Virus record (IMG/VR): IMGVR_UViG_2529293138_000008
Span: 1 to 35,920 of that record
Origin: a virus
Lineage: Duplodnaviria; Heunggongvirae; Uroviricota; Caudoviricetes
Length of the DNA: 35,920 bases
Direction: 5' to 3' (one strand)
This document shows, piece by piece, positions 3,362-35,085 of the stretch. The stretch's first letter is position 1; every line of letters starts with the position of its first letter. The notes beneath the pieces were generated by a model. It made no database searches. It was given only the letters and a program-made list of their open reading frames with translations, and was not told where the DNA came from. The position numbers were made by a program, and so were the translations under genes.

Positions 3362-3372
3362 AGGGCGTTGCG

Positions 3373-3812: not shown

Positions 3813-4016
3813 ATGGCAATTAAGCATTTTCCTGTCGTTCGTTTCACTTCCAGAGGACGTGAATACGAAGTCGACGAACGCCTGATTACCACAATCGACA
3901 AACACCGCTCAGAAAAGGATGCACACCACATCTATCTCACTGACGGTACTTACTTCTGCGCCACTAATGTGGCGCGGGTGAATCTTATCCGACAGGTACA
4001 GGATCCACGTAAATGA
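3813..4016 (+). CDS. Hypothetical early protein
   Basis: 67-aa ORF with a caggagg SD upstream. Confidence 0.5.
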   Translation: MAIKHFPVVRFTSRGREYEVDERLITTIDKHRSEKDAHHIYLTDGTYFCATNVARVNLIRQVQDPRK

Positions 4017-9365: not shown

Positions 9366-9393
9366 CTTAAAGCGGAAGATTAATACATGGTGA

Positions 9394-9420
9394 GTCGGGA
9401 TAATTTGTTTTTATCCCGAC
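9394..9420. other. Hairpin between convergent cargo genes (possible terminator)
   Basis: gtcgggata-N9-tatcccgac stem-loop, read directly. No clean U-run on either strand, so terminator function is uncertain. Confidence 0.3.
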
Positions 9421-9455
9421 AAATAAACAAAAAAGTGGACTATCTCTGTAGTATC

Positions 9456-9986
9456 TTATTCAGCATCGTCTCGTGCAGTCTGTGCATACGTCACAACAAC
9501 GCCCAATGCATTAGTTTTCTTTTCAACATAGATAATATTGTCATATTCATAGTTACCATACGGATAGCAAATAAGAATATTTTTATGCAGATCGGGATCA
9601 TCAACAAACGCTCCGGAACAGCTTCTTGAACTACCGGATGTATACTCATACGGTGCAACATATGATGATGTTACTCCTGGTAAAAAATAAGTCACCATCA
9701 TAAGAGGGATAATCAGGAATATCCCTGTAAGAATGCAAGAGCCAGCATAAACCTTCAGGTATTCCGACAGTCCTTTCCAGCCACTTTGCTTCACTACCCC
9801 CCTCTTCACCAGAAACAAGGAGAAGAAAAAGGACATACCCATACTACACAAGATGTAATAATTGGATATACGCGAATTAAGATATGTAATCCTGTAGATA
9901 TCTGCCCTCCACCAGTAAAAGAGGAAAATAATCCCTAGCACTGAAACAGTCATGCAAATCAAATAAGGATATGAATCTTTCTTCAT
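9456..9986 (-). CDS. AT-rich integral membrane protein (about 3 TM helices plus C-terminal soluble domain), cargo
   Basis: 176 aa. Hydrophobic segments LICMTVSVLGIIFLFYWW, YILCSMGMSFFFSLFLV, AGSCILTGIFLIIPLMMVTYFL. Visibly lower GC than flanking phage core. Same position and orientation as P2 old (next to cos, minus strand). Confidence 0.55.
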   Translation of the reverse strand: MKKDSYPYLICMTVSVLGIIFLFYWWRADIYRITYLNSRISNYYILCSMGMSFFFSLFLVKRGVVKQSGWKGLSEYLKVYAGSCILTGIFLIIPLMMVTYFLPGVTSSYVAPYEYTSGSSRSCSGAFVDDPDLHKNILICYPYGNYEYDNIIYVEKKTNALGVVVTYAQTARDDAE

Positions 9987-10515: not shown

Positions 10516-11562
10516 TCAGGCTGTGGGCTGGGTGTCTAACAGTGCGTAAGGGTTAAAGCGGATCACCTCTTCGCCCAGCCAGTCATTGATGTGCTTCATG
10601 GCCTCCATGACGGGCATCAGCTCGTTAATTGCGTAAACCCGCGCGGCCTTCTCCACATCACCAAACGCACTTTTTTCACCCGGCATCGCCCCCATCAGTT
10701 GCGGCGGAACGCGGTGCGCAGCCAGCACATCATCACGGGATGCCGCCTTAACATTCATGAACTCATCCTTTGCGGTGATCTGCTGGAACGGCAAAATTTG
10801 CACCCCCTCTTTGCCCCCGTTGGGCGCATGAATGAGCACGTTTTTAAACGCACCACCACCACGTGCACCCTGTAGCGTTTCTTTCAGGGAGTCCATGCTT
10901 TCGCGGTTTACCTGCGCTGCACCGATGTAGATGATGCACCCGGCGTGGGATCCGTTGTCGTAATACAGTTTTCTGAACATGTCCGCCGAATGAGACAGGC
11001 TGGCCGAGAGTAATGCGCCGAGATATTCCGGCATGCCGTAGATTTCCTGGTTAATGTCAGGATTCATCAGGTGGCACACTTTGCCAGGGCGAAACTGAAA
11101 CGCGTCCTTACCATCCTGCACATACCACCATGATTCAAGATCGCTTCCGCGTCGCATGTATTTCGCCAGGGCGTGCCGTAATTTAAGCGGTTCGCCGAGC
11201 ATATTGCTTCGAAGCTCAAGGAATGCGTTACCGAACACAAACCAGTCCAGCGCCAGCGCCGAGAAATCCTGCCGGGAAAGCAGCGGGTGCGGAATATAGC
11301 AGCCGAGCAATACATTGCGCTTAAAGTAAAGCGCAGACTGATGCCAGGACGTTTGCCGGGCAGCTCTTGCCAGACCGTACCAGTCCACCGGGGTTTCATA
11401 CCATCGCCCGTTATCGGCACAGTACATATTGTCCAGTAAATCATGCCCGGTCAGGCGGTAAGGGCCGTCAAATGTGAATGCACTGAGCGATGATTCTTTC
11501 CTGAGCGCATCAGCGAGATCAATGCGTGAACTCATGCGCACTTTTTTATTTTTTCTGCTCAT
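10516..11562 (-). CDS. Q: Portal protein (P2 gpQ-like)
   Basis: 348 aa (P2 Q is about 344 aa). Divergent from the capsid operon and adjacent to the large terminase, as in P2. Confidence 0.9.
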   Translation of the reverse strand: MSRKNKKVRMSSRIDLADALRKESSLSAFTFDGPYRLTGHDLLDNMYCADNGRWYETPVDWYGLARAARQTSWHQSALYFKRNVLLGCYIPHPLLSRQDFSALALDWFVFGNAFLELRSNMLGEPLKLRHALAKYMRRGSDLESWWYVQDGKDAFQFRPGKVCHLMNPDINQEIYGMPEYLGALLSASLSHSADMFRKLYYDNGSHAGCIIYIGAAQVNRESMDSLKETLQGARGGGAFKNVLIHAPNGGKEGVQILPFQQITAKDEFMNVKAASRDDVLAAHRVPPQLMGAMPGEKSAFGDVEKAARVYAINELMPVMEAMKHINDWLGEEVIRFNPYALLDTQPTA

Positions 11563-13313
11563 CAGAACTCCATAACCGTGAAACGCTCGTTTTCTCCTTC
11601 GCCGCCAATCGGTTCGTTAATGACAGCAAGCATGGTTGCCCACGCAAGGTCGCCGTGGCTGATCCCCCTCGCGCGGTCCGTTTCGTAAGTGATAAAGCCG
11701 CCCGGTGTTTTCACCTTACGCACGGCGTTAAAGGCTGCGACCAGCTCCCGTTCGGCGCGATCGTATTCCCAGCGCCCGGCACGCATTATTTGCAGCATTT
11801 TCAGTACCAGCGACCGTTTTGATGACAGCGTGAAGGTGTACGGAATAGCAGCAGGGAAAAACCGTTTCACTATCTGATAAACAGCCTCCCCGTTCCCGCC
11901 CGTCACATCAATGCCGATGTGTTCCACGTTGTAGCGATACGTAAACTCTTCAATGACTCTGGCCTGTTCTTCAAACTCCAGCCCCTGAACGCGTCGCGTC
12001 TCCACCGTTCGAAAACGGCCACCAGGAACAGCCGGAGGAACCACCACGGACACTGCGCCGCTGTCGCCGTTTCCACTGCTGCCGTTTGCGTCATATCCAA
12101 TCCATACCGGACGATTCCCCATCGGGCGGGGAGCAAAAGGTTTCCAGTCTTTCCAGTCGTCGTATCCGTCAACACCGCAGCCAATCAGGATATTCAGGTT
12201 AAATGCCGATTCCCCTTCGCGGACAAACTCACACATATAGAGATTGAGGAACTCGTCTTCGGTGTTTTCATCACGAATTTCGTCGATATCGGTGTGTTTC
12301 CAGCCGTGATTAACCACATCTTCCAGCGTGACAATTTGCCGCCACGTCCTGTCAGGGCAGATAAGCCCGTTATGCAGCGTTTTCCAGTCAACAGAAAAAC
12401 GCTGGCGTTTATGCGCGGCCTTTTTCTCATTCCAGCGGTCGCCGTTCCAGTAGGCGTATGCCTCGTGCGTTTCGGTGGATGGCGTGGAGAAGTAGGTGCG
12501 CCGCAGTCCGCTGAGGGTTGCCATAGCGCCAGCCACCTTGCGCAGTTCAGCAAAGCGACTGACCCAGAAAAATTCATCAAAATAAAAATTGCCCGTATAG
12601 GACTGTGCCGACGCAGCAGAAGTGCCGAGAAAATGCAGCTCTGCGCCGTTGGAGAGGATGATTTTATCGCCCCCTTTCAGCTCCACATCAACTTCAGCCG
12701 CGGCCTTCTGAATAATGCTTTTAAACTGGAACGCCTGACGACGCGACGCAGACAAAAAAATCTGGTTACGCTGGTAAGGTTGCGCCACATCGTCACGCAG
12801 CGCCATCAGCAGAGCTTCCTGTGCAAAATACCAGGTCGCCCCAATCTGTCGGGATTTCAGGATCATCCTGTTACGTATCCCGACTTCCCTGCAAAGGGTC
12901 AGGGAGTCAAACCAGCCCCGCTGATGCCACTCCAGCCTGCTGATGATTTTTTCCCGCAGTGCGGCAATCTGTTCCGGCGTGAAATGATTTTTGAGTTTTT
13001 TCGCCCGGCCTTTCTTTCCTGCGGCCATCACATCCGGCTGGCCATCATGCAGCTTTTTAAGCTGCCGGGTCAGCAGGTCTATTTCCTTAAAGTCACCGCC
13101 TGTTTTATTCTGTTTTTCAGTAAGCTGGATAAGGCGCGCATCGATGGACTGCGTGACACGCTGCACGGGTGGCGTTTCATCCCACTGGTCGCGTTTTTTC
13201 CACGCATAAATCGTGTTCGGGTTTATTCCCATCAGACGTGATATTTCTGCGGGCGGATAACCCTGCCAGTAAAGTTGTCGCGCACGCTGGCGCACAAAAG
13301 CGTCCTGAATCAT
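11562..13313 (-). CDS. P: Terminase large (ATPase) subunit (P2 gpP-like)
   Basis: 583 aa; position and size match P2 gpP; stop overlaps the portal start. The 440-aa plus-strand ORF at 11919..13241 is a shadow ORF. Confidence 0.9.
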   Translation of the reverse strand: MIQDAFVRQRARQLYWQGYPPAEISRLMGINPNTIYAWKKRDQWDETPPVQRVTQSIDARLIQLTEKQNKTGGDFKEIDLLTRQLKKLHDGQPDVMAAGKKGRAKKLKNHFTPEQIAALREKIISRLEWHQRGWFDSLTLCREVGIRNRMILKSRQIGATWYFAQEALLMALRDDVAQPYQRNQIFLSASRRQAFQFKSIIQKAAAEVDVELKGGDKIILSNGAELHFLGTSAASAQSYTGNFYFDEFFWVSRFAELRKVAGAMATLSGLRRTYFSTPSTETHEAYAYWNGDRWNEKKAAHKRQRFSVDWKTLHNGLICPDRTWRQIVTLEDVVNHGWKHTDIDEIRDENTEDEFLNLYMCEFVREGESAFNLNILIGCGVDGYDDWKDWKPFAPRPMGNRPVWIGYDANGSSGNGDSGAVSVVVPPAVPGGRFRTVETRRVQGLEFEEQARVIEEFTYRYNVEHIGIDVTGGNGEAVYQIVKRFFPAAIPYTFTLSSKRSLVLKMLQIMRAGRWEYDRAERELVAAFNAVRKVKTPGGFITYETDRARGISHGDLAWATMLAVINEPIGGEGENERFTVMEF

Positions 13314-21718: not shown

Positions 21719-24268
21719 ATGAGTACCACAACACGAAAATTTAAAACCGTTATCACCGATACGGGTGCAAAAAAATTAGCGCAGGCAGCCGCGTCAGATG
21801 GTAAGCCTGTCCGCCTGACTCATATGGCCGTAGGCGACGGTGGCGGCACGTTGCCCACACCAGACAGTAAGCAGACCCGTCTGGTGCATGAGGTGTGGCG
21901 ACACACTGTTAATCGCGTCATCCTGGACGCAACACATCAGAACCGCATTATTGCAGAGCTGGTTATTCCTCCAGAAACGGGCGGATTCTGGATCCGGGAA
22001 ATTGGTGTATTTGATGAGCACGGCGATTTAATCGCGGTGGGCAATACTGCCGAAAGTTACAAGCCAGCCGTTGCCGAAGGGTCCGGTCGTGCACAAACAT
22101 TTCGCACCATTCTGACCGTATCCAGCACTGCCGCCGTGGCGCTTACCGTGGATAACACCATGGTGATGGCCACAGTGGATTACGTGGATGACAAACTGAA
22201 AGAGCATGAACAGTCACGACGTCACCCGGACGCCTCGCTGACCGCAAAAGGCTTTGTTCAACTCAGTAGCGCCACTAACAGCGATTCTGAAACGCTGGCG
22301 GCAACGCCGAAAGCGGTTAAGGTCGCGTATGATCTTGCTAACGGAAAATATACAGCGCAGGATGCCACAACAGCGCGAAAAGGCCTTGTCCAGCTCAGTA
22401 GTGCCACCAACAGCGATTCTGAAACGCTGGCGGCAACGCCAAAGGCAGTAAAATCAGCCTATGACAATGCAGAGAAACGTCTGCAGAAAGACCAGAACGG
22501 TAGAGATATTCCAGATAAGGGCGCTTTCCTGAATAACATTAACGCGGTCAGTAAAACAGACTTTGCTGCTAAGCGCGGTATGCGTTATGTGCGGGTTAAC
22601 GCTCCTGCAGGTGCAACGTCTGGAAAATATTACCCTGTTGTTGTTATGCGCTCTGCTGGATCAGTAAGCGAGCTGGCATCAAGAGTAATTATTACTACGG
22701 CAACACGAACCGCAAACGATCCGATGAATAACTGCGAGTTTAATGGATTCGTTATGCCTGGCGGCTGGACTGACAGGGGGCGTTATGCCTATGGAATGTT
22801 CTGGCAATATCAAAACAATGAACGAGCCATTCACTCAATAATGATGAGTAATAAGGGCGATGATTTGCGCTCTGTGTTCTATGTTGATGGCGCTGCTTTC
22901 CCTGTTTTTGCGTTTATCGAAGATGGCCTGTCAATATCCGCACCGGGTGCTGATCTCGTTGTTAATGATACGACCTATAAGTTTGGGGCAATAAATCCGG
23001 CGACTGAATGTGTCGCGGCGGACGTTATCCTTGATTTCAAGAGTGGGCGTGGTTTTTACGAATCTCATTCGTTAATCGTTAACGATAACTTGTCGTGCAA
23101 AAAACTTTTTGCCACAGACGAAATTGTAGCGCGTGGTGGTAATCAGATTCGAATGATAGGTGGGGAGTATGGTGCATTATGGCGTAATGATGGCGCTAAA
23201 ACTTACCTGCTGCTTACCAATCAAGGTGATGTTTATGGTGGCTGGAATACATTAAGACCGTTTGCTATTGATAACGCAACCGGCGAACTGGTTATTGGAA
23301 CCAAACTGTCCGCAAGTCTGAACGGTAATGCATTAACAGCAACAAAGCTGCAAACGCCAAGACTGGTTTCTGGTGTTGAGTTTGATGGTTCCAAAGATAT
23401 TACTTTAACCGCCGCGCATGTGGCTGCTTTTGCCAGAAGGGCAACGGATACATATGCCGATGCGAATGGTGGCGTTCCCTGGAATGCCGAATCAGGCGCT
23501 TACAATGTCACCCGCTCTGGCGACAGCTATATTCTGGTTAACTTCTATACCGGAGTCGGAAGTTGCCGGACCTTGCAGATGAAGGCGCATTACAGAAATG
23601 GTGGTCTGTTCTACCGTTCTTCAAGAGACGGTTATGGTTTTGAGGAAAACTGGGCAGAAGTTTATACCTCGAAAAATCTTCCACCAGAAAGCTACCCAGT
23701 CGGCGCACCAATCCCGTGGCCATCAGATACCGTTCCGTCTGGTTATGCCCTGATGCAGGGGCAGACTTTTGACAAATCTGCTTACCCGAAACTTGCAGCC
23801 GCTTATCCGTCAGGCGTGATCCCTGATATGCGTGGCTGGACGATTAAGGGCAAACCTGCCAGTGGTCGGGCCGTATTGTCTCAGGAACAGGACGGCATTA
23901 AATCGCACACCCACAGCGCCAGCGCATCCAGTACGGATTTGGGTACGAAAACCACATCGTCGTTTGATTACGGTACTAAATCCACAAATAACACCGGAGC
24001 ACATACACATAACTTTGCTTACAACAATACTTCAGCATACGCAGATACTCCTGGTACTGGCGGAGGAATGCATGCAACTAACACCAGCAAGACAGCAAGT
24101 AATCGCGTATTAAGCGCAGGAGCTCATACTCATACAGTAGCAATAGGTGCGCATACACATACGCTCGCTATTGGTTCGCATACACACACCATTACCATTG
24201 CCGCTTATGGTAACGCGGAAAACACCGTTAAAAACATCGCATTTAACTATATTGTGAGGCTTGCATGA
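21719..24268 (+). CDS. H: Tail fiber protein (P2 gpH-like), with internal repeats and His-rich tip
   Basis: 849 aa. Duplicated 44-residue module containing [21 protein letters not shown] (DNA direct repeats around 22250-22322 and 22382-22454). C-terminal GAHTHT-type HxH repeats typical of fiber tips. Confidence 0.85.
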
Positions 24269-25155
24269 TTACGCTCATTCTTTCTGCACCAGTAACAGAA
24301 ATGGCTGAAGCATTTAAGCGAGTATTCGCAAATGCAGATAATGTGAATATTGTCGGAAAGCCATTTGAAACAATCAGAGAATTTGACTGCATGGTAAGTG
24401 CGGCAAATAGTTTCGGCCTGATGGATGGCGGCGTTGATGCCGCCATTACCACATTCTTCGGTACTCAGTTACAGGCCCGTGTTCAGAATCACATTCTTCG
24501 TGAATGTCTCGGCGAACAGCCTGTAGGTTCTGCATTTGTCATTGAAACGGGGCATAATCATCACCCCTGGTTGGTACATGCGCCAACAATGCGTGTTCCG
24601 TTGACAATTGACGGAACAGACGCTGTATATAACGCAACCTGGGCAGCTCTGCTTGCCATCTTTCAGCACAATAAAAACGCAACGACAGACATGAAAATAA
24701 AAACAGTGGTATTCCCTGCAATGGGGGCCGGATGTGGTCAGGTGCCGTTTGAAAGTGTTGCCCGGCAGATGAAGCAGGCATGGGATAACTTTAATAAAAA
24801 AACAGAATCAATTAACTGGGAATACGCACAATCCCGCCAGTCGGCAGTATTTGGCACATATGCATACTGTCCGGGTAATTCTGTTTGCCGTTATGCGGAT
24901 ACTAAATATATTGGATGCGGCGATTATCGGACGTATTGCTTACGGTCAGGGCAGGCATGTATTAATCCTGAACATCAGGTTGATGATGTGCTGGCTAATA
25001 ATCGCTCTCGCCCGGGTTCGCATGCACATCGAATTAATCCAGAAAATCCCGTAGGCCATCTCACCTCTGGTGAACATAGCCACGGAGGAGGCATCATTAT
25101 TGGTGCTCACCCCCATACGCTCAATAAACAATATTCTGTCTCTGGTATTAAGTAG
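24265..25155 (+). CDS. Macro-domain (ADP-ribose-binding/processing) protein with Cys/His-rich, fiber-tip-like C-terminus
   Basis: ATG overlaps the H stop (ATGA). N-terminal ~180 aa carries three macro-domain motifs: [30 protein letters not shown]...[32 protein letters not shown]-terminal ~110 aa has five Cys and three HxH motifs (SHAHR, EHSHGGG, AHPHTL) resembling the H tip. Confidence 0.6.
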
Positions 25156-25163
25156 AGGTGAAC

Positions 25164-25742
25164 ATGGATTTCAGAATGAGTGAACAACCACGGACCATAA
25201 AAATTTATAATCTGCTGGCGGGAACCAATGAATTTATTGGTGAAGGTGATGCATACATTCCACCTCATACAGGTCTGCCAGCAAACAGTACCGATATTGC
25301 GCCGCCAGATATTCCGGCAGGATTCGTAGCCGTTTTCAACAGTGATGAGGCATCGTGGCATCTCGTTGAAGACCATCGGGGAAAAACCGTCTATGACGTG
25401 GCTTCCGGCGACGCGTTATTTATTTCTGAACTCGGTCCGTTACCGGAAAATGTCACATTGCTGTCACCGGAGGGGGAGTATCAGAAGTGGAACGGCACAG
25501 CCTGGGTGAAGGATACGGAAGCAGAAAAAATGTTCCGGATACGGGGCGCTGAAGAAACCAAAAACAGCCTCATGCAGGTAGCCAGCGAGCATATTGCGCC
25601 ACTTCAGGATGCCGTAGATTTAGATATTGCGACGGAGGAAGAGGTATCGTTACTGGCTGCATGGAAGACATATCGGGTATTGTTGAATCGCGTTGATACA
25701 ACAGTGGCAGCGGATGTTGAGTGGCCAGTCGCACCACAATAA
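25164..25742 (+). CDS. G: Tail fiber assembly chaperone (P2 gpG/Tfa-like)
   Basis: ORF track 25158..25742; ATG 25164 follows an agagg SD. Position directly after the fiber genes; acidic C-terminus typical of Tfa proteins. Confidence 0.7.
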
Positions 25743-25748
25743 AAAGGA

Positions 25749-25778
25749 AAAGCCATCGATAGAAATATCGATGGCTTT
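25749..25778. terminator. Bidirectional terminator hairpin between convergent tfa and acetyltransferase genes
   Basis: Perfect 13-bp stem aaagccatcgata / tatcgatggcttt with GAAA loop; U-rich on the minus-strand side. Confidence 0.55.
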
Positions 25779-25785
25779 ATGTACT

Positions 25786-26358
25786 CTATTTATATAATAC
25801 AACACCGCTCTTTTTAGTTATATATGTGCAGTTCGATGGTATATCTTTATTTATAAAAGACATTGCACCTATTTTTACATTATCCCCAATTTTACGTGAT
25901 AATCCAATGATGCAACAATTAGCTCCGATATCAACGTTATTACCAATTTTTATTCTTGCACCAGGCATGTCACCATCTATCTGTCCAATGGTAGTATTCT
26001 GTCGTAACACCAGATTTTCACCAGCATCAACAGCAAAATGAACAACAATTCCAGCATGATGGGGAATTGTTAACCCTTTTCCAATATTTGCACCCAATCC
26101 AATTTCGCAACCAAACTTGTTAATTATTTTACTGTTTAACTTCTTGGCTGCTTTCTTATGTAATTCATTACCATTAATATACATTTCGTTAGCCAACCGC
26201 CACCAGAAAAGGAAATTCCGGTTACGCTGCTTTTTCTCTCTTAAAAGCCTCCAGATATCCACACGTTTCCGCCGAATTACTTCATATTTCCAGAAGTTTT
26301 TTAAATCAGTAGAGTTTCCAAATAAAACAAAGTGAATTGCCATTAAGTAAGACAGCAC
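25786..26358 (-). CDS. Hexapeptide-repeat (left-handed beta-helix) O-acetyltransferase, CysE/WcaB/NeuO-like (moron)
   Basis: 190 aa with repeated [LIV]-G-x-x-x-x hexads (IGLGANIGKGLTIPHHAGIVV, IKIGNNVDIGANCCIIG, IGDNVKIGAMSFI). Strongly AT-rich relative to flanking genes. Confidence 0.7.
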   Translation of the reverse strand: MLSYLMAIHFVLFGNSTDLKNFWKYEVIRRKRVDIWRLLREKKQRNRNFLFWWRLANEMYINGNELHKKAAKKLNSKIINKFGCEIGLGANIGKGLTIPHHAGIVVHFAVDAGENLVLRQNTTIGQIDGDMPGARIKIGNNVDIGANCCIIGLSRKIGDNVKIGAMSFINKDIPSNCTYITKKSGVVLYK

Positions 26359-26514
26359 GATAATCTCCTTAATTATTATTTCAGACCATACATGTTATAA
26401 GGTTAAGAGATTATAAAATCCTGTTATTTGTTATTCAAAAACAATTTTCTAAGAAGGACATACAACAGCAAGTCGTCAGTCACCTTCATCAGGACATTGG
26501 CGACATACGTTAAA

Positions 26515-27009
26515 TCAGAGCAGCCCCTTAACTGAGCTGGCCGCGCTATTAAGGGATGATGTCACCTTATCTTTGAAGCCGGACAACATATCGCTGAACG
26601 ATGAGGATTGCAGACGCTCCCGCAAATCCTCATCACAGCGTTCAAGGGTCAGTGAAAATTCTATCTTTTTCGCCTTACCGTAGCGATCAAACTCGGAACG
26701 GGTCGTATTCGTTCCGGTCAGGACATACATGCCGTAAATCTGCCCGACACCATCAATCAAAGGCCAGGGTCGTCCTGTATACGCCTGCGTGGTCAGCAGC
26801 GACAGCGACACTTCGCCACCTGTAATTTCAGGATAAAGCACACCAGAAAGAACGATGCGATCATCACCTGCACCGATATACTGCCAGCTTGCTGAACGGT
26901 TAACGCGTTCATTTTTCACATGCCGCCAGCTTTTGTTTTGCTGTAACTGCTGATGCGGCAATGTGCGCAGCTCAAAAACAAACATGCCGTAGATCATCAT
27001 CATGGTCAT
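26515..27009 (-). CDS. U: Tail protein (P2 gpU-like)
   Basis: 164 aa. MMMIYGMFVFELRTLPHQQLQ..SWRH, GVLYPEITGG, PLIDGVGQIYGMYV, IEFSLTLER parallel recalled P2 gpU. Confidence 0.85.
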   Translation of the reverse strand: MTMMMIYGMFVFELRTLPHQQLQQNKSWRHVKNERVNRSASWQYIGAGDDRIVLSGVLYPEITGGEVSLSLLTTQAYTGRPWPLIDGVGQIYGMYVLTGTNTTRSEFDRYGKAKKIEFSLTLERCDEDLRERLQSSSFSDMLSGFKDKVTSSLNSAASSVKGLL

Positions 27010-27015
27010 GACTCC

Positions 27016-29859
27016 TCAATCTTTATCGTAAAAACTGCCACGCCCGGCACGGGCTCGCCGTTCCATTTCTGCCCTGACCATTTCACCGACCAGTTTCGCC
27101 AGTTCGCGGGGATTCTGCGTAACAACGTTATGCAGATGAACATGAATTTCACCGCCAAATCCGGAGACAGCAGGCTCCCGGTTACGGGAAGTTGCAGGAA
27201 CTGATGCCACTGGCGATCGTATGGCCTCCGCCACCGGGCGGGAGCTGGCCGCAACAACAGGGACCAGCGCCGGAGGCAGCGGAGCCGGGACCACGGGGGT
27301 GATATTAATTGCGGGGACAGGCTTACTGACCTGCGCAATCTTCCGCTCCTGCCACTCCCCACGAACAGCAAGTGCGCGAGGCAGGTTCTTAAAGACAATA
27401 TCGCCGGGGCCAATGCGTTTTTTCGTCTCATCAACCAGCTTACCTGTGTTATCAGCAATTTTGCTGAGTCTGCGTAGCGTCCCGGTATTGCTGTCTGTGA
27501 GTGGTTTGTTGTCTTTGGGTTTATCACCTCCGGTGCCATTGCCATTTTCCACAGGCTTCGGCAGATTGATTTTCGCCAGGTCCCCCTGAAGCAAGGCAAC
27601 CTTGTCCTGAAGAATGGCCGCACGCTGTGCGTCTTCGATTTTCTTTCTCGCCCTTTCCGCTTCATCCGGAAGAACACCGAGTTTTTCAAGTATCCATGCC
27701 AGCGTATCCAGCAGCATTTTTGCAGGTGTCAGAACAAGTTGTAACGCACCGCCAAGAACGTTACCGAATACCTTGCCAGCACTGGTACATTTATCCAGCG
27801 TTTCCTTGCTGGACTCCATCGGTGACAGCAGCGATTTAAACCAGTTAAACACCTGGCTGATCCCACTCCCGATTGCGTCAAAAACAGGACCAAACCGTTC
27901 AAAGGTTTCGCGCAACGGGGTCAGCCTTTCCATAATCCCGCTGAACACCCCGGCAAAAAATGCCCTGATGGGATCCCAGTATTTCCAGATAAGAACGGCA
28001 GCTCCGGCAAGCGCAGCCACGATAAGACCAACCGGACTGAACAGCGCCCCGATAGCACCTCCCAGTAAAGAAACGGAACCCGTCACCATTCCCCACAGCG
28101 CAGGCAACACTCTGACGACATTCATTGACCGGGTAAGAATGTCAAAACCAAGACGCAGTTTTGCCAGCGGGCCAGCAAGCACACCAATAGCCAGCGACAA
28201 CGAGCCAACCGTTGCAGTCATTGCCAGCAGTGCACCGCCTGCAATCAGTAGCTGGCGCGTCAGTGCGGGATGGGCCTGCGCCAGCGCCGTCACCTTTGAT
28301 ACCACACGCGTGAGCCACTGCGTGACAGAACGCAGCGGACCGTCAATCAGATCTGCAATGCGGATGCGCAACCCTTCCCATGCACTGCTGAGTGATTTCA
28401 GATCGCCGTCAAGGTTGTTGGCCATAACCTTTGCCGTGCGTTCAGCCTCACCGCGCGCGCCTTCAAGTTCTTTTCTCAGTTTGGGTAAGGAGCCGTCACC
28501 TGCCGCATCAACGAGGGCCATAAATGATGTGAAAGCCTCTTCTCCGGCAATGTCCTTAAAGAACGATACCCGGTCAACTTCCCCGTATTTGCGGGTAGCT
28601 TTATAAAGGTCAGCCAGCACATCCTCCATCGGGCGCATTTTGCCCCCGGCATCCGAGACAGACACGCCAAGCTCTTTCAGCGCCTCTGCTGCCGCCTTTG
28701 GCGGTGATGCCAGACGAGCCAGGCTGGCACGCATTGCCGTACCAGCATCACTCCCCCTGATACCCATATTCGCCAGCACGCCCGCCATCGCTGCGGCCTG
28801 CTCCAGCGATATTCCCAGCTTACCCGCCACCGGACCTGCATATTTCATGGTTTCACCCAGTGCGCGAAGGTCAGTGTTGGTACGGGTAAACGCTGCGGTG
28901 AGTGTGTCGCCGACCCGGTCCATCTGGTCAGCAGAAAGGCCGAACTGCGTCAGGATATTTGAGCCAATATCCGCCGTCTCGCCGAGATCCATACCGCCAG
29001 CCGTTGCCATGCTCAGCACGCCGGGAAGCGCAGCCTGAATGGCCTGCGGAGTAAAACCAGCCATTGCAAGAAATGCCTGTCCACTGGCGGCATCGCCTGC
29101 GGTGAACTGCGTTTCAGAGCCAAGTTTTAACGCCTGCTCACGCAGCGCCTTAAACTGCGGGCTGTTCTGGTCAATTCGCGTCAGCGCCTGAACGCGGGAC
29201 ATCTCTTTCCCGAACCCGATCGCGGGCTGCAAAAAACGCCCGGCAGCATAGCCGCCCGCCGCTGCCGCACCAGTTGCCAGCGCACCACCTGTTTTCAGTT
29301 TTCCAGCGGTTTCCTGCGCGCGCGAATACCGCTCACGCGCCCGCGTTACACGCGCAAGCGCCTGCCGTTCGCGTTCAAGCTGGTTGTTGTACTGTTCGGT
29401 GCGTCTGATGGCCTGCTGGATGGTGTTATCGCTGCCTGTCAGGGAAATGCCGTGGCGTTTCAGTTCTCCGCCAAGCTCCCGCATTTTCTGAATTTCCCGT
29501 GTGCGCGATTCATTCAGGCGTTCAAGCCGGGTGCTTAACTGCTGCATCAGCTTTTGTTGTTTTTCGCTGAGCACTGTACCCGTGCGTTGTAACTGATTAA
29601 GGGCGTTAAGCTGGCGTCGTGCTTTCACGATACCCGCATCCGCTTTACTGACAGCGTCGCGGGCGCGCTCAAATGAACGCGCCTGACGCTCGAGATTTTT
29701 GATCGCCCCCTGCGTTCGCTGGATGGAGTCACCAAACTGCCCCATCAGGCGGCGTGCGTTTTCGGCAGGCCGGGTCAGCCTGTCAACGGCGCTGAAAGCG
29801 ACCCGGATATCAAGAGTCTTCATTGTCTGCATTCCCGCTGCGAAGTGCCGCCCGCTCAC
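27016..29859 (-). CDS. T: Tail tape measure protein (P2 gpT-like)
   Basis: 947-aa ORF with coiled-coil N-terminus, Gly/Ala-rich hydrophobic middle and long helical C-terminus. GTG at 29859 or ATG at 29832/29823 are all possible starts. The 330-aa plus-strand ORF at 27614..28606 is a shadow. Confidence 0.85.
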   Translation of the reverse strand: MSGRHFAAGMQTMKTLDIRVAFSAVDRLTRPAENARRLMGQFGDSIQRTQGAIKNLERQARSFERARDAVSKADAGIVKARRQLNALNQLQRTGTVLSEKQQKLMQQLSTRLERLNESRTREIQKMRELGGELKRHGISLTGSDNTIQQAIRRTEQYNNQLERERQALARVTRARERYSRAQETAGKLKTGGALATGAAAAGGYAAGRFLQPAIGFGKEMSRVQALTRIDQNSPQFKALREQALKLGSETQFTAGDAASGQAFLAMAGFTPQAIQAALPGVLSMATAGGMDLGETADIGSNILTQFGLSADQMDRVGDTLTAAFTRTNTDLRALGETMKYAGPVAGKLGISLEQAAAMAGVLANMGIRGSDAGTAMRASLARLASPPKAAAEALKELGVSVSDAGGKMRPMEDVLADLYKATRKYGEVDRVSFFKDIAGEEAFTSFMALVDAAGDGSLPKLRKELEGARGEAERTAKVMANNLDGDLKSLSSAWEGLRIRIADLIDGPLRSVTQWLTRVVSKVTALAQAHPALTRQLLIAGGALLAMTATVGSLSLAIGVLAGPLAKLRLGFDILTRSMNVVRVLPALWGMVTGSVSLLGGAIGALFSPVGLIVAALAGAAVLIWKYWDPIRAFFAGVFSGIMERLTPLRETFERFGPVFDAIGSGISQVFNWFKSLLSPMESSKETLDKCTSAGKVFGNVLGGALQLVLTPAKMLLDTLAWILEKLGVLPDEAERARKKIEDAQRAAILQDKVALLQGDLAKINLPKPVENGNGTGGDKPKDNKPLTDSNTGTLRRLSKIADNTGKLVDETKKRIGPGDIVFKNLPRALAVRGEWQERKIAQVSKPVPAINITPVVPAPLPPALVPVVAASSRPVAEAIRSPVASVPATSRNREPAVSGFGGEIHVHLHNVVTQNPRELAKLVGEMVRAEMERRARAGRGSFYDKD

Positions 29860-30339
29860 GCCAGCTAACCACTTCGCCGGGCGTCATCATGAAGATTTCG
29901 GCGGGCGACCAGTTAAAAATAACGGCAATATCTGCCACAAAGTCTTCTATGTGCTCAAAGCACACAACCGTGATCAGGCTTCCGTCGCCTGTTCGTTCTT
30001 CCCGCCAGAGTCCGCACCGCTCAAAAAATTTACGGCAACCACACATAACTGAATAAAGTCACGGGATGCCATTTTTTTGATCGTCACTTCATCCAGTCGC
30101 GGTGATGTCACGCGTGACAGCAGCGTAAACATGGATTCCGCTTTCAGATTCAGCACATCAGACAGTGACAAATCTCGCAGAGATCCAGCCTGCTCAATAG
30201 CTCCGGTGATCTCCACATACGTGATTTTTTCGCCGCCTCGCTCAATTGGTTGGGTAAGTTTTACGCCACGCTCACTGGTTTCTTTCACAGTGTCAGTAAC
30301 TACCGTATTTTCGGTATCGATGTTTTTCGTCTCTTTCAT
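29810..30339 (-). CDS. gpE+E' -1 frameshift fusion product (predicted)
   Basis: Frame arithmetic: E codons start at coordinates congruent to 0 mod 3; the 29810..30046 ORF is in the frame reached by a -1 slip. The A7 tract AAA-AAA-A (30078..30072 on the coding strand) lies in E frame as TIKKMA. E' overlaps the T start, as in P2 and lambda G/GT. Confidence 0.5.
29974..30339 (-). CDS. E: Tail assembly chaperone (P2 gpE-like)
   Basis: AGGAG SD upstream. Core region GEKITYVEITGAIEQAGSLRDLSLSDV resembles recalled gpE. Contains an A7 run at 30072-30078. Confidence 0.75.
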   Translation of the reverse strand: MKETKNIDTENTVVTDTVKETSERGVKLTQPIERGGEKITYVEITGAIEQAGSLRDLSLSDVLNLKAESMFTLLSRVTSPRLDEVTIKKMASRDFIQLCVVAVNFLSGADSGGKNEQATEA

Positions 30340-30393
30340 CAGGAAACTCCTTTCAGTCAGAGGCGACGCACTGCGCCGCCTGCATATTACTTA

Positions 30394-30906
30394 TCAGCCA
30401 AGCCCAAGCGCGGAACGGATGCGATCGGGCACAATGTCCTTGCCGTCCTTCCGGTAAATGAAGTTCAGCAGGTCAATCTCCCACAACGGGCGATCGTTAA
30501 CACTCAGCTTGTAGTAGGTGTTTTTAATGGCGTAAGTGTGTGATGTGGCTTCGCCCTGTTTGGCTTCCCCCATATCAATTTCCGTCACACGTCCGCGCAT
30601 TTCGACTTCATACAGGTCGCTTTCATCATCGGTGTAGTATTCACCCGCAAAACGCAGTAGCGTGCCGTCAATCGTGCCGCCATACTTCAGGAACAGCTCA
30701 CGAACTGCGCCCCCCATGACAAAGCTCGCATCAAGCGCGGAGTCGTCCAGACCGAGATCAATACTTACCGCACCCATCATGCCGCCCCCCCGGTAGCTGT
30801 CGGTTTTGCGCGTCAGCTTGGGCAGAGTGACGGACGTCACCTTACCTACTTCGTTTTCACCATCCACAAACAGCGTAAAAAAGCGAAGATGTTTTGGCAC
30901 AGCCAT
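30394..30906 (-). CDS. FII: Tail tube protein (P2 gpFII-like)
   Basis: 170 aa (P2 FII about 172 aa), directly downstream of the sheath gene on the same strand. Confidence 0.9.
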   Translation of the reverse strand: MAVPKHLRFFTLFVDGENEVGKVTSVTLPKLTRKTDSYRGGGMMGAVSIDLGLDDSALDASFVMGGAVRELFLKYGGTIDGTLLRFAGEYYTDDESDLYEVEMRGRVTEIDMGEAKQGEATSHTYAIKNTYYKLSVNDRPLWEIDLLNFIYRKDGKDIVPDRIRSALGLG

Positions 30907-32090
30907 CAGGCACCTCCCAGCACCGCAAATGCGGGTTCAAAGTATTCATCAGTAAACGTCTGGTAAAGCTCCATGTCTTCCAGTGGCGGAACGGGCGTAT
31001 ATTTGTAGCGAATACGCACACGCCCCTGACGTAAATCCGTGGTGCTGTTATCCACCACGTCATACCAGCACTCCGCGCCAATCAGTTTCCCGGCAGTAAC
31101 CAGTGAATCCAGTTTTGCCCTGATGGCACTGATAACATCTTTCACGTTCGCAGGCGTCAGTGGACTGTCGATGGTTTCAAACTGCGCTTCCGCAATTGAA
31201 TCAGCCAGCACCTGTGCGGTTCGGGTATACACCTCAAAGATGTAGGCATTCGTTTCCGGTGTGCGGTTGCCCCAGAAGCGGAACCCGTTGCGACGAATAA
31301 TGGTCGTGATTTCTTTGTTGTTGAGGCTGTTGGCATCACTGTCTTCGGCCTGCAACGACCAGAACACATGCCTCGACATCCCCAGCACATTTTTAACCGG
31401 AACGTTGGACAGTGATTTGTGCCAGCCCTGCTCATGGTCAATGTATGCACGAAGACCGCACGCATAGGCAGGCGCGGGGAACGTTTCGTTTTTGCCACTT
31501 TTGGGGTTGTAGGCGATGAAGTCCGGCCATAAGAGCATCACCTCACGTTCGTTGAATTTCTGGCGGTAGGTAATTGCCTCTGCCATCGTGTTACAGCCAT
31601 TACATGAGGCATACACAAACGCGCGCAGTTTACCTGCAATCACGCACAGGGATTTTGTTACAGCCTCCGTGTCCAGCTCCGGCGCGGCCAGAATACGCGG
31701 ACGGTATCCGATGCTTTCATCCTGCTCTGCAACAAGCAGCGCATACATCCCCGTATAGCTGCCGTCATCCTCAGAACCACCGATAACCAGTTGATCCTGC
31801 GTCTTACCGTCTTCTTCTTTGTGTTCAGCCACGCGAACGACGATCACCTTTGTGCTCACCTGGTCTGCGATGGCTTTAAGCGCACGATAAAGCGTCCCCG
31901 TTGTCCCGCATTTTCCCAGCACGTCATTGACGCGGGTCAGCAGTGTGGGCTTGTTCAGCGGGAACAGCTTCGCGTCCGCATCATCCGCCGTTGCCACGAT
32001 ACCGATAACGCTGGAATCAACATCGTTAATCGCTGTTACCAGGTCGGTATTTTCCGTAACACGGGCACCATGAAAACGAGTTTCACTCAT
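30906..32090 (-). CDS. FI: Tail sheath protein (P2 gpFI-like)
   Basis: 394 aa (P2 FI about 396 aa); ATG at 32090 with a GGGG-type SD. Confidence 0.9.
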   Translation of the reverse strand: MSETRFHGARVTENTDLVTAINDVDSSVIGIVATADDADAKLFPLNKPTLLTRVNDVLGKCGTTGTLYRALKAIADQVSTKVIVVRVAEHKEEDGKTQDQLVIGGSEDDGSYTGMYALLVAEQDESIGYRPRILAAPELDTEAVTKSLCVIAGKLRAFVYASCNGCNTMAEAITYRQKFNEREVMLLWPDFIAYNPKSGKNETFPAPAYACGLRAYIDHEQGWHKSLSNVPVKNVLGMSRHVFWSLQAEDSDANSLNNKEITTIIRRNGFRFWGNRTPETNAYIFEVYTRTAQVLADSIAEAQFETIDSPLTPANVKDVISAIRAKLDSLVTAGKLIGAECWYDVVDNSTTDLRQGRVRIRYKYTPVPPLEDMELYQTFTDEYFEPAFAVLGGA

Positions 32091-32247
32091 AGCTTCAGCC
32101 CCTTGTATCCGTTAAATGATTCGGCAACAATCATCACCCACCACGCGCGTAATCTCACCCCTGCGCCGTTCTCCCGCCACGGCGACAACAAAAAGCAGTA
32201 ACCCCCTCCGCACGCACATGCGACCATGCCGCACAGGGAGGGAACAG

Positions 32248-33357
32248 ATGACCGACACCACCATGCAATTGCTCAGTCAGGGCACAGACCCCGTAAAAAT
32301 GCCGGATTTTGATATTCTCGCGGAGGGTAAAACGCTGTCCGGCGTGGCAGAGCGCCTGATGAGCCTGTCGCTGACCGACAACCGGGGATTTGAGGCAGAC
32401 CAGCTCACCATCACGCTGGATGATGCGGATGGTCAGTTGCAGCTACCGCCACGGGGCGCGCGCCTGACGGTTCTCATTGGCTGGAAAGGCGAACCGCTGA
32501 CAGAAAAAGGGTCTTACATTGTTGATGAAATCGCACACGAAGGACCGCCGGACAGGCTGACTGTTTCAGCCAGAAGCGCAGATTTCCGGGATGAATTTAA
32601 CGTTAAACGTGAGGTGTCCTGGCATGATGTGACCGTTGAGCGTGTGGTATCCGCCATCGCTCATCGGTACGGTCTGAAACCGCAAATCAGCGAAATGCTG
32701 ATGGATATCGAAATCGACCACGCCGACCAGACCGAAGAAAGTGACATGTCCTTCCTTACGCGCATGGCGGAAATGCTGGGCGCAATCACTACGGTAAAAA
32801 GCGGTAATCTGTTATTCATCATGCCCGGTGGTGGCGTGAACGCACAGGGCCAGCCGTTGCCATCGTTCGCCATCACGCGCAGCAGCGGCGATCGCCATCA
32901 GTTCCGCATTGCTGACCGCGAGGCGTATACGGGGGTACGCGCTTACTGGCTTGATCTTAATTACGGGAAAAAGAAAAAAGTCAGCGTGAAACGCCGCAAA
33001 CCGCCAAAACCGAAAAAAGAGAAAAGCAGCAGCCGTGAAGGTGATTATATGGAAGGCGCGGAAGGCAATGTGTTTGTGTTACGCAAGACTTATCAGAACG
33101 AGCAGGCAGCAAGACGCGCAGCGGCGGCAAAGTGGCAACAACTACAACGCGGAGCCGCATCATTCTCCATCACGCTGGCACGTGGACGAGCAGAACTCTA
33201 CCCCGAAATGCATGGCACGGTAACAGGATTTAAAAGCGAGATTGATAATCAGGACTGGATTATTGCAAAAGCCGAGCACACCATTGATAACAGCGGCTTT
33301 ACCACGCAGCTTGAGCTTGAGGCAAAAATCCCGGAATGGATAGCAGAAACAGAGTGA
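32248..33357 (+). CDS. D: Tail protein D (P2 gpD-like)
   Basis: ORF track 32116..33357 trimmed to ATG 32248 after a gggaggg SD. LSGVAERLMSLSLTDNRGFEAD, ARSADFR, SWHD, lysine-rich linker and REGDYMEGAEGNVF align with recalled P2 gpD. Confidence 0.85.
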   Translation: MTDTTMQLLSQGTDPVKMPDFDILAEGKTLSGVAERLMSLSLTDNRGFEADQLTITLDDADGQLQLPPRGARLTVLIGWKGEPLTEKGSYIVDEIAHEGPPDRLTVSARSADFRDEFNVKREVSWHDVTVERVVSAIAHRYGLKPQISEMLMDIEIDHADQTEESDMSFLTRMAEMLGAITTVKSGNLLFIMPGGGVNAQGQPLPSFAITRSSGDRHQFRIADREAYTGVRAYWLDLNYGKKKKVSVKRRKPPKPKKEKSSSREGDYMEGAEGNVFVLRKTYQNEQAARRAAAAKWQQLQRGAASFSITLARGRAELYPEMHGTVTGFKSEIDNQDWIIAKAEHTIDNSGFTTQLELEAKIPEWIAETE

Positions 33358-33582
33358 GCAACTTAAATGTATTAACTCAGAACGGATCAACACACTCACA
33401 ACATAGAGTCAATATAGCTGCTCGCTTTGTTCCAGCAAGGATGCCTATTTCTAAGGAAAAACAGAGCAGAAACATATGGTGTTTTCCTACCTGACATCAG
33501 GGGTGGTAAGAATCATGCTTTGATAACCAATTGATAACTATTATTATATTAATCTAACACCATTGACATAGTTGAGGTTTGA

Positions 33583-35085
33583 ATGAACAAAAAGCTGTAT
33601 TTATTCCCAGACTCAAACATTTTTCTACAATGCAAGGACTTGACGCAGGTAAATTTTTCCGAGATTACTGCTTGTGATGAAGTATGTATCATTATTACAA
33701 GGCCCATTCAGCAAGAGATTGACCGCCAGAAAGGGCAAGGTAATTCCCGCCTATCCAAAAAAGCAAGGAAGGCTGCTAGCCTATTTAATCAAGTAGTTGA
33801 TTCAACTGACATGACTCTTGTTATTCGTGAACGCTCGCCGCGAGTTTTTCTTACCATGGATCTAAGCCTGAAACCATGTGAACAGTTATCTGAACAATTG
33901 GATTATCAGGAGGCCGACGATCGTTTTGTTGGTATTGCGGCAGGGTATTGCGCTGACGATCCAGATTCGGAGGTGGCAATCATTACCAATGATAGCGGTC
34001 CACGTTTTTCAGCAATAAAACATAATATAATCTGCTATAAAGTGCCTTCTTCATGGTTGCTTCCTGCTGAGCCAGATGAAAAGGATAAACAAATTAAATT
34101 GCTGGAAGCTAAGCTGAAGCAATTCACTCAGTCTATGCCCGATTTCAGCATTAAAGTAGCCGATGACGAGCAATTAAATATTGTACTTCCTTATTATACA
34201 GCTTTATCTGTATATGAAGTTGATAATTTGCTTTGTCAACTAACGGATGCATTCCCATTGGTTACAAACTTTGACAATGAACAAACTACCCCACAATCAC
34301 TAGAAAAAATCATCAAGTCATTTAGTCAACAGGAGTATTTCCCTGTATCAGCAGATGATATTTCTCTTTATAAAGAAAAACATTATCCACTTTGGAAAAA
34401 GCAGTGTGAAGAAATACTGAAAAACTGTCATACTCATATTAATCCGAAGGCAATAAAATACCCGCTGTCGTTTTTATTACAAAACACAGGTTATACTATC
34501 GCTGAACGTGCTGTGGTAACATTTACAGCAAAAGGAGATTTTCGTCTGTGTGGATTTAATTGGGAGATAATGGAAGAGCTGACTGAAAGCAAAAGGATTG
34601 ACCTACCTTCAGCCCCTACCGCCCCCAAAGGAAAATGGCGTAGTGTATGTGGCGTAACAGAAAGAATGCCTTACGCTTGGGGAGCTTTGGAAACACCGCT
34701 ATCCAGTATAATTTCAAAAGAAATTGGTCCTTTGTTATCTCTTACTCCAACAGAAAGGGATAAAAACGATTTTTATTATAAAGAAAAGAGAAATGAGCCA
34801 GTTCAAGTTGTATCGCTGGAATGCGAAGAGTGGCGTCATCAAGTCAAAGAAGAAATATTCCCGTTGTTCGTATATACAGCCAACAAACCAAAGAAAGTGA
34901 ATGGTGCAATTGAGGTGAGAGTTGATGCAAATAACCTTACCAATCCGGTCATTAAAACATTTAAATTAAAAATAACTATAGAAGAACATAGTGCATTTTC
35001 AACCATAACAGAAATGGTGCAGACATACATTCAAGAGCAGAAGAAAAGACAGAAAAGTTCTATTAGCGCACAAATCAAAACATGA
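33583..35085 (+). CDS. Stand-alone 500-aa protein with PIN-like N-terminal nuclease fold and uncharacterised C-terminal domain (cargo; candidate defence gene)
   Basis: AT-rich gene with its own sigma70-like promoter region (TTGATA ... TATATT around 33520-33560), gagg SD and downstream hairpin. N-terminal acidic residues in PIN-like spacing: LYLFPDSNIF (D), QQEID (E/D), QEADDRFVGIAAG (D), AIITNDSGP (D). C-terminal ~330 aa has no motif I recognise. Confidence 0.6.
   Translation: MNKKLYLFPDSNIFLQCKDLTQVNFSEITACDEVCIIITRPIQQEIDRQKGQGNSRLSKKARKAASLFNQVVDSTDMTLVIRERSPRVFLTMDLSLKPCEQLSEQLDYQEADDRFVGIAAGYCADDPDSEVAIITNDSGPRFSAIKHNIICYKVPSSWLLPAEPDEKDKQIKLLEAKLKQFTQSMPDFSIKVADDEQLNIVLPYYTALSVYEVDNLLCQLTDAFPLVTNFDNEQTTPQSLEKIIKSFSQQEYFPVSADDISLYKEKHYPLWKKQCEEILKNCHTHINPKAIKYPLSFLLQNTGYTIAERAVVTFTAKGDFRLCGFNWEIMEELTESKRIDLPSAPTAPKGKWRSVCGVTERMPYAWGALETPLSSIISKEIGPLLSLTPTERDKNDFYYKEKRNEPVQVVSLECEEWRHQVKEEIFPLFVYTANKPKKVNGAIEVRVDANNLTNPVIKTFKLKITIEEHSAFSTITEMVQTYIQEQKKRQKSSISAQIKT

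Follow-up and report, generated by a model that had tools for sequence, protein, structure and literature searches.

The cargo cassette and its product

We analyzed a stretch of 35,920 nucleotides (nt) from IMG/VR record IMGVR_UViG_2529293138_000008 (positions 1 to 35,920; hereafter, the window), which is a P2-like prophage, and studied in it an acetyltransferase gene, AT, that lies beside the tail-fiber genes and whose product may act on the lipopolysaccharide (LPS) of the host. The intact open reading frame (ORF) occupies 25786..26358 on the minus strand, has a GTG start, and encodes 190 amino acids, divided into a helical N-domain (about residues 1-82) and a left-handed beta-helix (about residues 83-190). 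With its flanks it makes up a cargo cassette, 25743..26514, which fits exactly between the stop codons of gpU and of tfa, the tail-fiber assembly gene also called G (25158..25742, plus strand; Caudo_TAP) and the conserved syntenic partner of AT. The upstream part of the cassette is an A+T-rich spacer of 31.4% G+C that extends from the gpU stop to the AT start (26359..26514, minus strand). There, a Shine-Dalgarno sequence, AAGGAG, was read 6 nt upstream of the GTG (26365..26370, minus strand), and a sigma-70-like promoter was recognized by consensus match only (26410..26438, minus strand), with a 17-nt spacer separating TTGAAT from TATAAT and 10 of 12 positions matching. Both elements were identical in two other prophage copies (loci L001 and L003); in the P1-like phage JL22 the region upstream of AT was different, yet a promoter-like site of the TTGACA type could be read in it by eye. 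A weak terminator-like site alone stands between gpU and AT. At the other end of the gene, between the convergent tfa and AT, a hairpin followed by a T-tract (25749..25778, minus strand) resembles an intrinsic terminator for AT, with a perfect 13-bp stem, a 4-nt loop, and an energy of -18 to -19.5 kcal/mol. The first-pass annotation of this DNA had described the hairpin as bidirectional; it does sit between convergent genes, but it scored as an intrinsic terminator on the minus strand alone, where its tail reads TCCTTTTTAT.

The same annotation had called the gene an A+T-rich moron, and this was borne out. The G+C content was 34.9% for the AT ORF and 34.2% for the cassette, against 49.1% for tfa, 49.9% for gpU, and 51.6% for the whole window; when stretches of 573 nt were compared, the minimum of the window fell inside the AT gene, and only 0.65% were equally A+T-rich. 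The gene is missing from otherwise collinear relatives, and homology to these stops sharply at the tfa stop (about 25726-25735) and at the gpU stop (about 26508). With these borders, its own promoter (as a consensus match) and terminator, and its deviant base composition, AT is a moron, i.e., a self-contained cargo of promoter, gene, and terminator at the 3' ends of the convergent tail-fiber and tail-tube/tape-measure operons. No Ogr-type late-promoter element (TGT-N12-ACA) was found upstream of AT, and the gene contains no tandem repeats or phase-variation tracts, its sole array being an imperfect two-copy 17-nt repeat. An Rfam scan of 25600-26700 on both strands gave no match in the cassette. 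In the 3' part of tfa it gave a sub-threshold match to IS009 (25600-25705, plus strand; 77.5 bits, with a gathering score of 117) that was truncated by the start of the searched region, and our guess is that this may be mere homology to the tfa of a related K-12 prophage.

Intact copies at least 90% identical to AT were detected in 530 of 5,426 complete E. coli genomes (about 10%), and the tfa-AT-gpU arrangement was the same in 496 of these. The gene was present on plasmids at 66 places, many of the replicons being P1-sized (about 90-108 kb). The four copies that were compared were all intact, with dN/dS values of 0.04-0.22; AT is a real gene under purifying selection. One allele (at least 96% identical) occurred in strains named O157:H7, O55:H7, O111, O104:H4, and O103, whose O-units we take to be chemically different.

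The beta-helix domain of the protein was matched by serine acetyltransferases (SATs) of the PDB with E = 2e-12. An AlphaFold2 model (pLDDT 76.6) contained five N-terminal helices and then a beta-coil over residues 83-190, and when this model was used in Foldseek, the top matches were all SATs, with a TM of about 0.7. The PDB matches, the model, and the Foldseek result place the protein in the beta-helix (hexapeptide-repeat) acyltransferase superfamily; Pfam Hexapep gave 22.1 bits, under its gathering score of 27. PHROG 2154, of 'unknown function', matched residues 13-190 over profile positions 3-181 of 185 (E = 3e-86, 288.6 bits). Upon alignment with E. coli MG1655 CysE and WcaB, the catalytic His158 of CysE fell on His100 of AT, nearly invariant in the family, and its acidic partner, Asp143, on Glu85, a position held by Glu or Asp in the family. 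This His-acid dyad is common to the whole CysE/WcaB branch and is hence non-discriminating. AT thus belongs to the CysE/WcaB branch of the acyltransferases, and we take it to be a soluble left-handed beta-helix enzyme of the trimeric type.

The curated profiles did not claim the protein for any of their enzymes. The best NCBIfam matches were EpsC with 76 bits (cut-off 150), cysE/TIGR01172 with 61.5 (210.65), and WcaB with 57 (195 and 196), and PRK11132 gave 36.9 against a cut-off of 397. Of the first-pass assignment to a CysE/WcaB/NeuO type, the CysE/WcaB branch was retained and the NeuO likeness was dropped. The match to CUS-3 NeuO amounted to 22.7 bits over 44 residues, a generic hexapeptide similarity, and AT has no heptanucleotide repeats, while the phase-variable AAGACTC repeats of the CUS-3 gene were confirmed as annotated. 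None of the PADLOC defense-protein models matched AT at E values up to 1.

A true CysE was likewise rejected, along with the possibility, raised in the first-pass annotation, of a housekeeping SAT fragment. Besides the sub-threshold profile scores, Pfam SATase_N had no match in AT, about the first 90 residues of CysE have no counterpart in it, and its helical domain is shorter (about 80 residues). The two proteins share the combination of a helical domain with a beta-helix fold and the catalytic His/Asp, with 23% identity in the family alignment and 29% over a 115-residue local match. CysE residues Asp92, Arg192, and His193, which we take from known structures to be serine/cysteine-binding, are not conserved in AT or across its family: a DP motif is absent, and Ala and Arg occupy the AT positions aligned with Arg192 and His193, which vary across the family. 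AT ends right after the last coil, and the C-terminal tail of CysE, which ends in Ile and binds CysK, has no counterpart. In the contexts of close homologues that were inspected, no cysK, cysM, or cysS neighbor was found, whereas among the distant hits, which served as a control, true SATs do adjoin cysteine genes (9 times PALP, of cysK type, and 5 times CysS). The protein is named in RefSeq, PGAP, and phage records 'serine acetyltransferase' or 'serine O-acetyltransferase', and some newer entries 'LbetaH domain-containing protein'. The cut-offs of the curated models support neither serine name, and we consider 'serine O-acetyltransferase' to be an over-annotation; AT is probably a glycan O-acetyltransferase rather than a SAT.

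Relatives in phages and in LPS core clusters

Chromosomal contexts of the relatives were drawn from the matches listed in a genome-contig scan and supplemented by exact-protein look-ups for close enterobacterial relatives that were not among these. The AT family, at 44-60% identity, has two recurrent homes, LPS core operons and the 3' flank of tfa in phages. In Leminorella grimontii, a homologue with 48% identity is the last gene of waaB-waaI-waaY-waaZ-AT and is convergent with waaL, and each of its neighbors passed at least one curated cut-off. In Halopseudomonas, a homologue follows hldE-msbA and a Kdo-kinase-like gene. The core oligosaccharide cluster of the Pseudomonas mendocina group contains Kdo-family kinases, a carbamoyltransferase, GT2, AT, and, further along, MsbA and Mig-14, and there AT begins before the GT2 gene has ended (the Pseudomonas order is, in outline, waaP-wapO-GT-AT-msbA); a further Pseudomonas locus has the order WaaP-family kinase, GT2, AT, UDP-glucose dehydrogenase. 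The core-cluster enzymes of Leminorella and P. mendocina, which are putative acetyltransferases, resemble the window protein in identity (44-50% over about 165-175 residues, including the N-domain), in length (179-190 amino acids), and in the motifs FWWRLA, HH.GIV, RQN.TIG, and IGAMSF. Unlike it, they are encoded on the chromosome, in the same orientation as genes for core glycosyltransferases and kinases, and in some cases show translational coupling to these. The core oligosaccharide of Pseudomonas is O-acetylated by transferases not yet identified (PMC8005017).

The other relatives were single-gene islets or belonged to further mobile elements; among their contexts were one of plasmid or pathogenicity-island type and the end of a prophage, beside hok/gef. 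Around more distant relatives, the commonest neighbors among the matches listed were GT1/GT4 and GT2 glycosyltransferases, and a wca-type cluster was not found in any of the contexts inspected. In Halopseudomonas oceani (L005, 6004-9427), a family member (6004-6543, plus strand) is followed about 850 nt downstream by a more distant SAT-like beta-helix acetyltransferase of 219 amino acids and then by a NeuB-type nonulosonic acid synthase; here core genes seem to border on O-antigen genes. In Rosenbergiella (L193 and L194, 2477-5040), a family member is divergent from an Acyl_transf_3 plus SGNH gene, the architecture of OafA-type membrane O-acetyltransferases, and two different surface-glycan acetylation systems thus stand side by side.

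The adjacency to fiber genes, which the first-pass annotation had thought meaningful, proved to be recurrent. The tail-to-tail pair of tfa and AT was found over 37-96% protein identity in P2-like, P1-like, Mu-like, and other phages. Within a comparison of 80 IMG/VR loci, all alleles at least 86% identical and with a usable 3' flank had a convergent tfa 46-47 nt downstream, and among the divergent alleles (45-70% identity) 10 of 19 had one, at 16-87 nt. The pair was also present in P1-like JL22, vB_EcoM-613R2, Hafnia phage yong2, Citrobacter phiNP, and a Salmonella Mu-like prophage. The Proteus copy of AT directly adjoins a putative fiber gene, and that of ESSI2_ev015 an integrase. JL22 and the window share 25170-26350, i.e., tfa, the hairpin, and AT, at 91% nucleotide identity, and this shared segment ends at about the AT start codon. 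The identities of AT and tfa co-vary broadly (96/93, 86/68, 65/46-49, and 45/39%), with exceptions (37/77 and 44/57), a pattern that reflects both co-divergence and re-assortment. Judged from these sequences, the position of AT beside the fiber genes is not accidental.

In JL22 (L002, 5463-9810), AT is flanked by two convergent fiber/assembly sets, stf-tfa and S-U, with the cin invertase alongside, and is co-oriented with, and downstream of, the alternative fiber genes S'-U'. It is probably inside the invertible segment, and inversion would then change its upstream sequence. A link of AT to one particular fiber tip was looked for and not found: the phages that carry it share 288 nt of H (23693-23980) and tfa, and the rest of H differs. 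Virulent Streptococcus thermophilus phages, some with host ST64987, carry a 32%-identical 'serine acetyltransferase', and in Streptococcus phage CHPC577 (L099, 3420-3947) this relative stands between a baseplate gene and the holin, an arrangement that looks like a Gram-positive parallel to the pairing of an acetyltransferase with a receptor-binding gene.

In a bootstrapped neighbor-joining tree of 22 sequences, 100 of 100 replicates split off WcaB, CysE, and the protein of the streptococcal phage from the AT family. This split, together with an identity of 44-50% over 164-182 residues including the N-domain, supports the grouping of AT in the proposed LPS-core-cluster family. Support was 78/100 for a group made up of the Leminorella core enzyme and the copies of phiNP, the Salmonella Mu-like prophage, and Rosenbergiella, and 97/100 for a group of the Pseudomonas LPS copies; monophyly of all phage copies was obtained in 0 of 100 replicates. 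The tree thus intermingles versions from phages and from LPS core clusters, and this speaks for an activity common to both. The window protein fell in a clade (100/100) with JL22, Buttiauxella, two other E. coli alleles, and Obesumbacterium.

The prophage slot and its alternative cargo

Sibling prophages with the same gpU have other content in the slot between tfa and gpU. In E. coli MB06101 (L108), the equivalent of window positions 25743-26514 is occupied by a GT9 (heptosyltransferase-family) gene at 2744-3922, and the order tfa-GT9-gpU was found in 46 complete E. coli genomes. The Pfam GT9 score of this cargo, 27 bits against a cut-off of 22, is barely above the cut-off, and NCBIfam gave it no name; it is a second candidate for a phage cargo that modifies the LPS core. 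In loci L107 and L109, the slot contains a recombinase-family (invertase-type) gene together with a second, oppositely oriented tfa and a fiber fragment, which looks like an invertible host-range switch. All of these replacements have to do with the receptor or with host range.

In the prophage to which the slot belongs, the integrase gene occupies 1011-2138, gpA 4699-7566, and the portal and terminase genes 10516-13313. The run of baseplate and fiber genes ends with the tail-fiber gene H (21719-24268, plus strand). Beyond the cassette come gpU (26515-27009, minus strand), the tape-measure gene (27016-29859, minus strand), and then E, FII, and FI on the same strand, followed by gpD (32116-33357, plus strand). 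The tail block FI-FII-E-T-U (26515-32090, minus strand) is thus opposite in strand to H-G (21719-25742, plus strand) and to gpD. In canonical P2, the FI-U block, H-G, and gpD are all co-oriented. Because FI-U is inverted, G and U converge, and the cargo lies at their junction; prophages of O157:H7 and of other E. coli strains have the same layout (L001, L003). The slot is comparable to the Z/fun locus of P2, a variable, non-essential site by the tail-fiber assembly gene G with host-affecting genes (PMC13586616); Z/fun differs in content, and in the AT lineage the slot is bounded by G and U, each with its 3' end. Neither of two papers on P2 hotspots (PMC13586616, PMC9122126) mentions an acetyltransferase.

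Further cargo was observed elsewhere in the window. The accessory hotspot between gpA and the portal gene contains a ParM-type plasmid-segregation gene (7643-8602, plus strand; StbA_N/ParM, 274 bits), followed (8982-9986) by an Ead/Ea22-like ORF and an unassigned ORF of 176 amino acids in a low-G+C patch. A 'putative plasmid partitioning system' is reported for about a quarter of P2-like phages (PMC9122126), and the ParM locus matches this description. In a second low-G+C region (about 33121-35085), an ORF of 500 amino acids with an N-terminal PIN_4 domain (33583-35085, plus strand), just past gpD, may be defense or toxin-type cargo near the prophage end.

Between H and tfa lies a macro-domain ORF (24265-25155, plus strand; Pfam Macro, 67 bits), which the first-pass annotation had tentatively linked in function to AT. 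This link did not hold. The macro gene was found in 128 E. coli genomes and AT in 530, the contiguous order macro-tfa-AT was seen in only 25, and L003 and JL22 have AT without the macro gene; the two genes are independent cargo. The macro gene was also found at 22 places on plasmids. The macro ORF has an ATGA start/stop overlap with H, and its C-terminal 45 or so residues are His-rich (HAH, HSH, HPH), by eye like the HxH repeats at the tip of H. PHROG 2613 matched it over the full length, and its macro part matched a 'tail protein' PHROG (14717). The product could be a fiber-associated esterase or hydrolase.

Proposed function and competing explanations

We propose that AT is a lysogenic-conversion O-acetyltransferase acting on LPS, most likely on its core, a reading whose chances we judge to be evenly balanced. 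Taken by its parts, LPS is on the whole a probable target, the core specifically falls slightly short of an even chance, and an effect on phage adsorption is somewhat more doubtful. We infer the donor, the acceptor, the timing of expression, and the phage-exclusion phenotype as follows. Using acetyl-CoA, the prophage enzyme would O-acetylate an LPS sugar, likely in the core. It would be expressed in the lysogen from its own promoter, possibly boosted by read-through of the late tail operon. Fibers of P2, P1, and Mu type bind LPS core, and the modified LPS would mask their receptor. With the receptor masked, related phages would adsorb less well to lysogens and to the debris of lysis, and the surface met by other phages and by the host would be altered as well.

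The relatives in core operons, the GT9 gene in the same slot, and the spread of one allele across O-serogroups together suggest a conserved acceptor such as the core, the last of these favoring a conserved acceptor over a serotype-specific polymer. The GT9 gene of the sibling prophages gives independent support for core-directed cargo at this site, and the presence of family members in waa operons agrees with a soluble enzyme that depends on acetyl-CoA. The first-pass annotation had expected a surface polysaccharide as the target; that much is kept, and these same observations redirect its capsule or O-antigen to the LPS core. A bolder proposal, and one we offer as possible rather than probable, is that the AT family would be the missing cytoplasmic core O-acetyltransferase, a near-fixed partner of tfa in temperate phages of at least four tail types (P2-, P1-, and Mu-like among them), where it would mask the core receptor of their own fibers. 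It would then be the equivalent, directed at the core, of O-antigen seroconversion, concealed so far by the name 'serine acetyltransferase'.

Several points weigh against the proposal. The clade of the window protein has no LPS-cluster member in our sample, so that the core assignment draws on relatives of 44-50% identity, and its sister relationship to the Pseudomonas LPS group was recovered in only 43 of 100 replicates. About half of the chromosomal relatives, among the matches listed, are single-gene islets in unrelated contexts, and the sample of contexts is not exhaustive. The site behind tfa attracts cargo in general, and part of the synteny could reflect opportunity for insertion rather than function. 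The promoter scan scored 5 sites in the region, and 3.8 would be expected in shuffled sequence. Our literature search found no functional study of the protein or of its accession numbers, that is, no biochemical or genetic test.

The alternatives differ mostly in the acceptor. An unlikely one is serotype conversion, in which AT would acetylate an O-antigen unit or a capsule in the manner of NeuO or WbbJ. Cytoplasmic beta-helix acetyltransferases are established to act on repeat units linked to undecaprenyl diphosphate (Und-PP), GT1/GT4 and GT2 genes are the commonest neighbors of distant relatives, L005 and L007 border O-antigen-type genes (NeuB, UDP-glucose dehydrogenase), the Rosenbergiella homologue lies beside an AT3-SGNH surface-glycan acetyltransferase gene, and NeuO of CUS-3 likewise adjoins the gene of a receptor-binding protein. 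However, a single allele spans the serogroups named above, AT has neither specific similarity to NeuO nor phase-variable repeats, and the relatives most clearly embedded in clusters are flanked by WaaY, WaaZ, WaaL, WapO, Kdo kinases, and MsbA. We give far less credence to acetylation of colanic acid or another conserved exopolysaccharide, on Und-PP-linked fucose as by WcaB. WcaB falls outside the family (100/100), its NCBIfam score is far below the cut-off (57 against 195), no relative was found in a wca-type cluster among the contexts inspected, and there are homologues in Pseudomonas and Halomonas, which to our knowledge lack colanic acid. These points outweigh in our view that WcaB is the closest characterized E. 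coli enzyme, with 36% identity over 109 residues and the same ...GxEI...HH... region, and that nearly every E. coli has colanic acid, which would agree with the occurrence of AT in many serotypes. Least probable of all, to the point of being nearly negligible, is a true serine O-acetyltransferase that would raise the supply of O-acetylserine and cysteine or CysB signaling in the lysogen; the database names and the SATs as best solved structural relatives speak for it, but the scores (TIGR01172 61.5 against 210.65, PRK11132 36.9 against 397), the lack of SATase_N, the unconserved positions of Arg192, His193, and Asp92, the missing CysK-binding tail, the close homologues without cysteine-gene neighbors, unlike the distant true SATs, and the newer RefSeq name all speak against it.

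A target other than a glycan, where the enzyme would inactivate a small molecule (antibiotic, toxin, or signaling nucleotide) or serve in anti-phage defense or counter-defense and the tfa site would be merely tolerant, is quite unlikely. The tail-gene region of P2-like phages is a recognized hotspot for accessory and defense genes (PMC13586616, PMC9122126), and many relatives are single-gene islets or come from the plasmid, pathogenicity-island, and hok/gef settings described above. Set against this, no PADLOC model matched AT, the recurrent cluster context is LPS biosynthesis and not defense islands, the tail-to-tail order with tfa is kept across deep divergence, and the alternative slot occupants (GT9; invertase plus alternative fiber) bear on receptor or host range. 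The chemistry could also be as we propose and the timing late lytic, with read-through from FI-FII-E-T-U leading to modified LPS on the dying cell so that progeny avoid debris. The co-orientation of AT immediately downstream of gpU, its like placement downstream of S'-U' in JL22, and the weakness of the only terminator-like site between gpU and AT would agree with such timing. We hold it to be improbable all the same: the gene has its own strong sigma-70-like promoter (a consensus match) and Shine-Dalgarno sequence, conserved between copies, and no Ogr-type element, relatives that lie beside integrases, as orphan islets, or within waa operons have no phage late operon to depend on, and LPS made late would presumably replace little of that already in the outer membrane.

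Compared with known enzymes, AT is like WcaB (E. coli K-12 b2058, the colanic acid fucose O-acetyltransferase) in being a small SAT-like beta-helix protein without a full SATase_N, with 36% identity over the beta-helix and the same acidic-His catalytic region. WcaB works in the cytoplasm on a lipid-linked sugar; it differs in its separate position in the tree, its shorter and different N-terminus, and its location in the wca operon. NeuO of CUS-3 is, like AT, a prophage-borne hexapeptide-repeat enzyme encoded next to a receptor-binding protein gene, and differs in belonging to another beta-helix branch and in its AAGACTC repeats. It acetylates a serotype-specific capsule, K1 (polysialic acid), the same glycan that its neighboring receptor-binding protein recognizes. 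The Oac/GtrC/OafA-type enzymes of Sf6, BTP1, and D3 are integral-membrane AT3 proteins acting on O-antigen at or beyond the membrane, whereas AT is predicted to be soluble and dependent on acetyl-CoA, with relatives that suggest the core. Prophage-encoded O-acetylation of surface glycans with altered phage susceptibility is a well-known phenomenon, with Sf6 Oac, D3, BTP1 GtrC, and CUS-3 NeuO as examples (see PMC13123978). New relative to these conversions would be a lineage of CysE/WcaB fold with members in waa clusters, a predicted core target, and a near-fixed synteny with tfa across phage types.

The AT gene is common and already catalogued; what the evidence does is shift its target to the LPS core and expose a module of fiber assembly and acetyltransferase. 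Its current database name predicts the wrong biology, and the carriers include O157:H7, O111, and O104:H4 strains. The tfa-acetyltransferase pair is a practical marker for predicting host range or for engineering it in phage therapy. If the core is acetylated, AT, widespread and disseminated by phages, would help to determine how susceptible a cell is to the many phages, tailocins, and immune factors that read the core, its family would supply a candidate for the core O-acetyltransferases of Pseudomonas (PMC8005017), and lysogenic conversion would extend from the O-antigen to the core.

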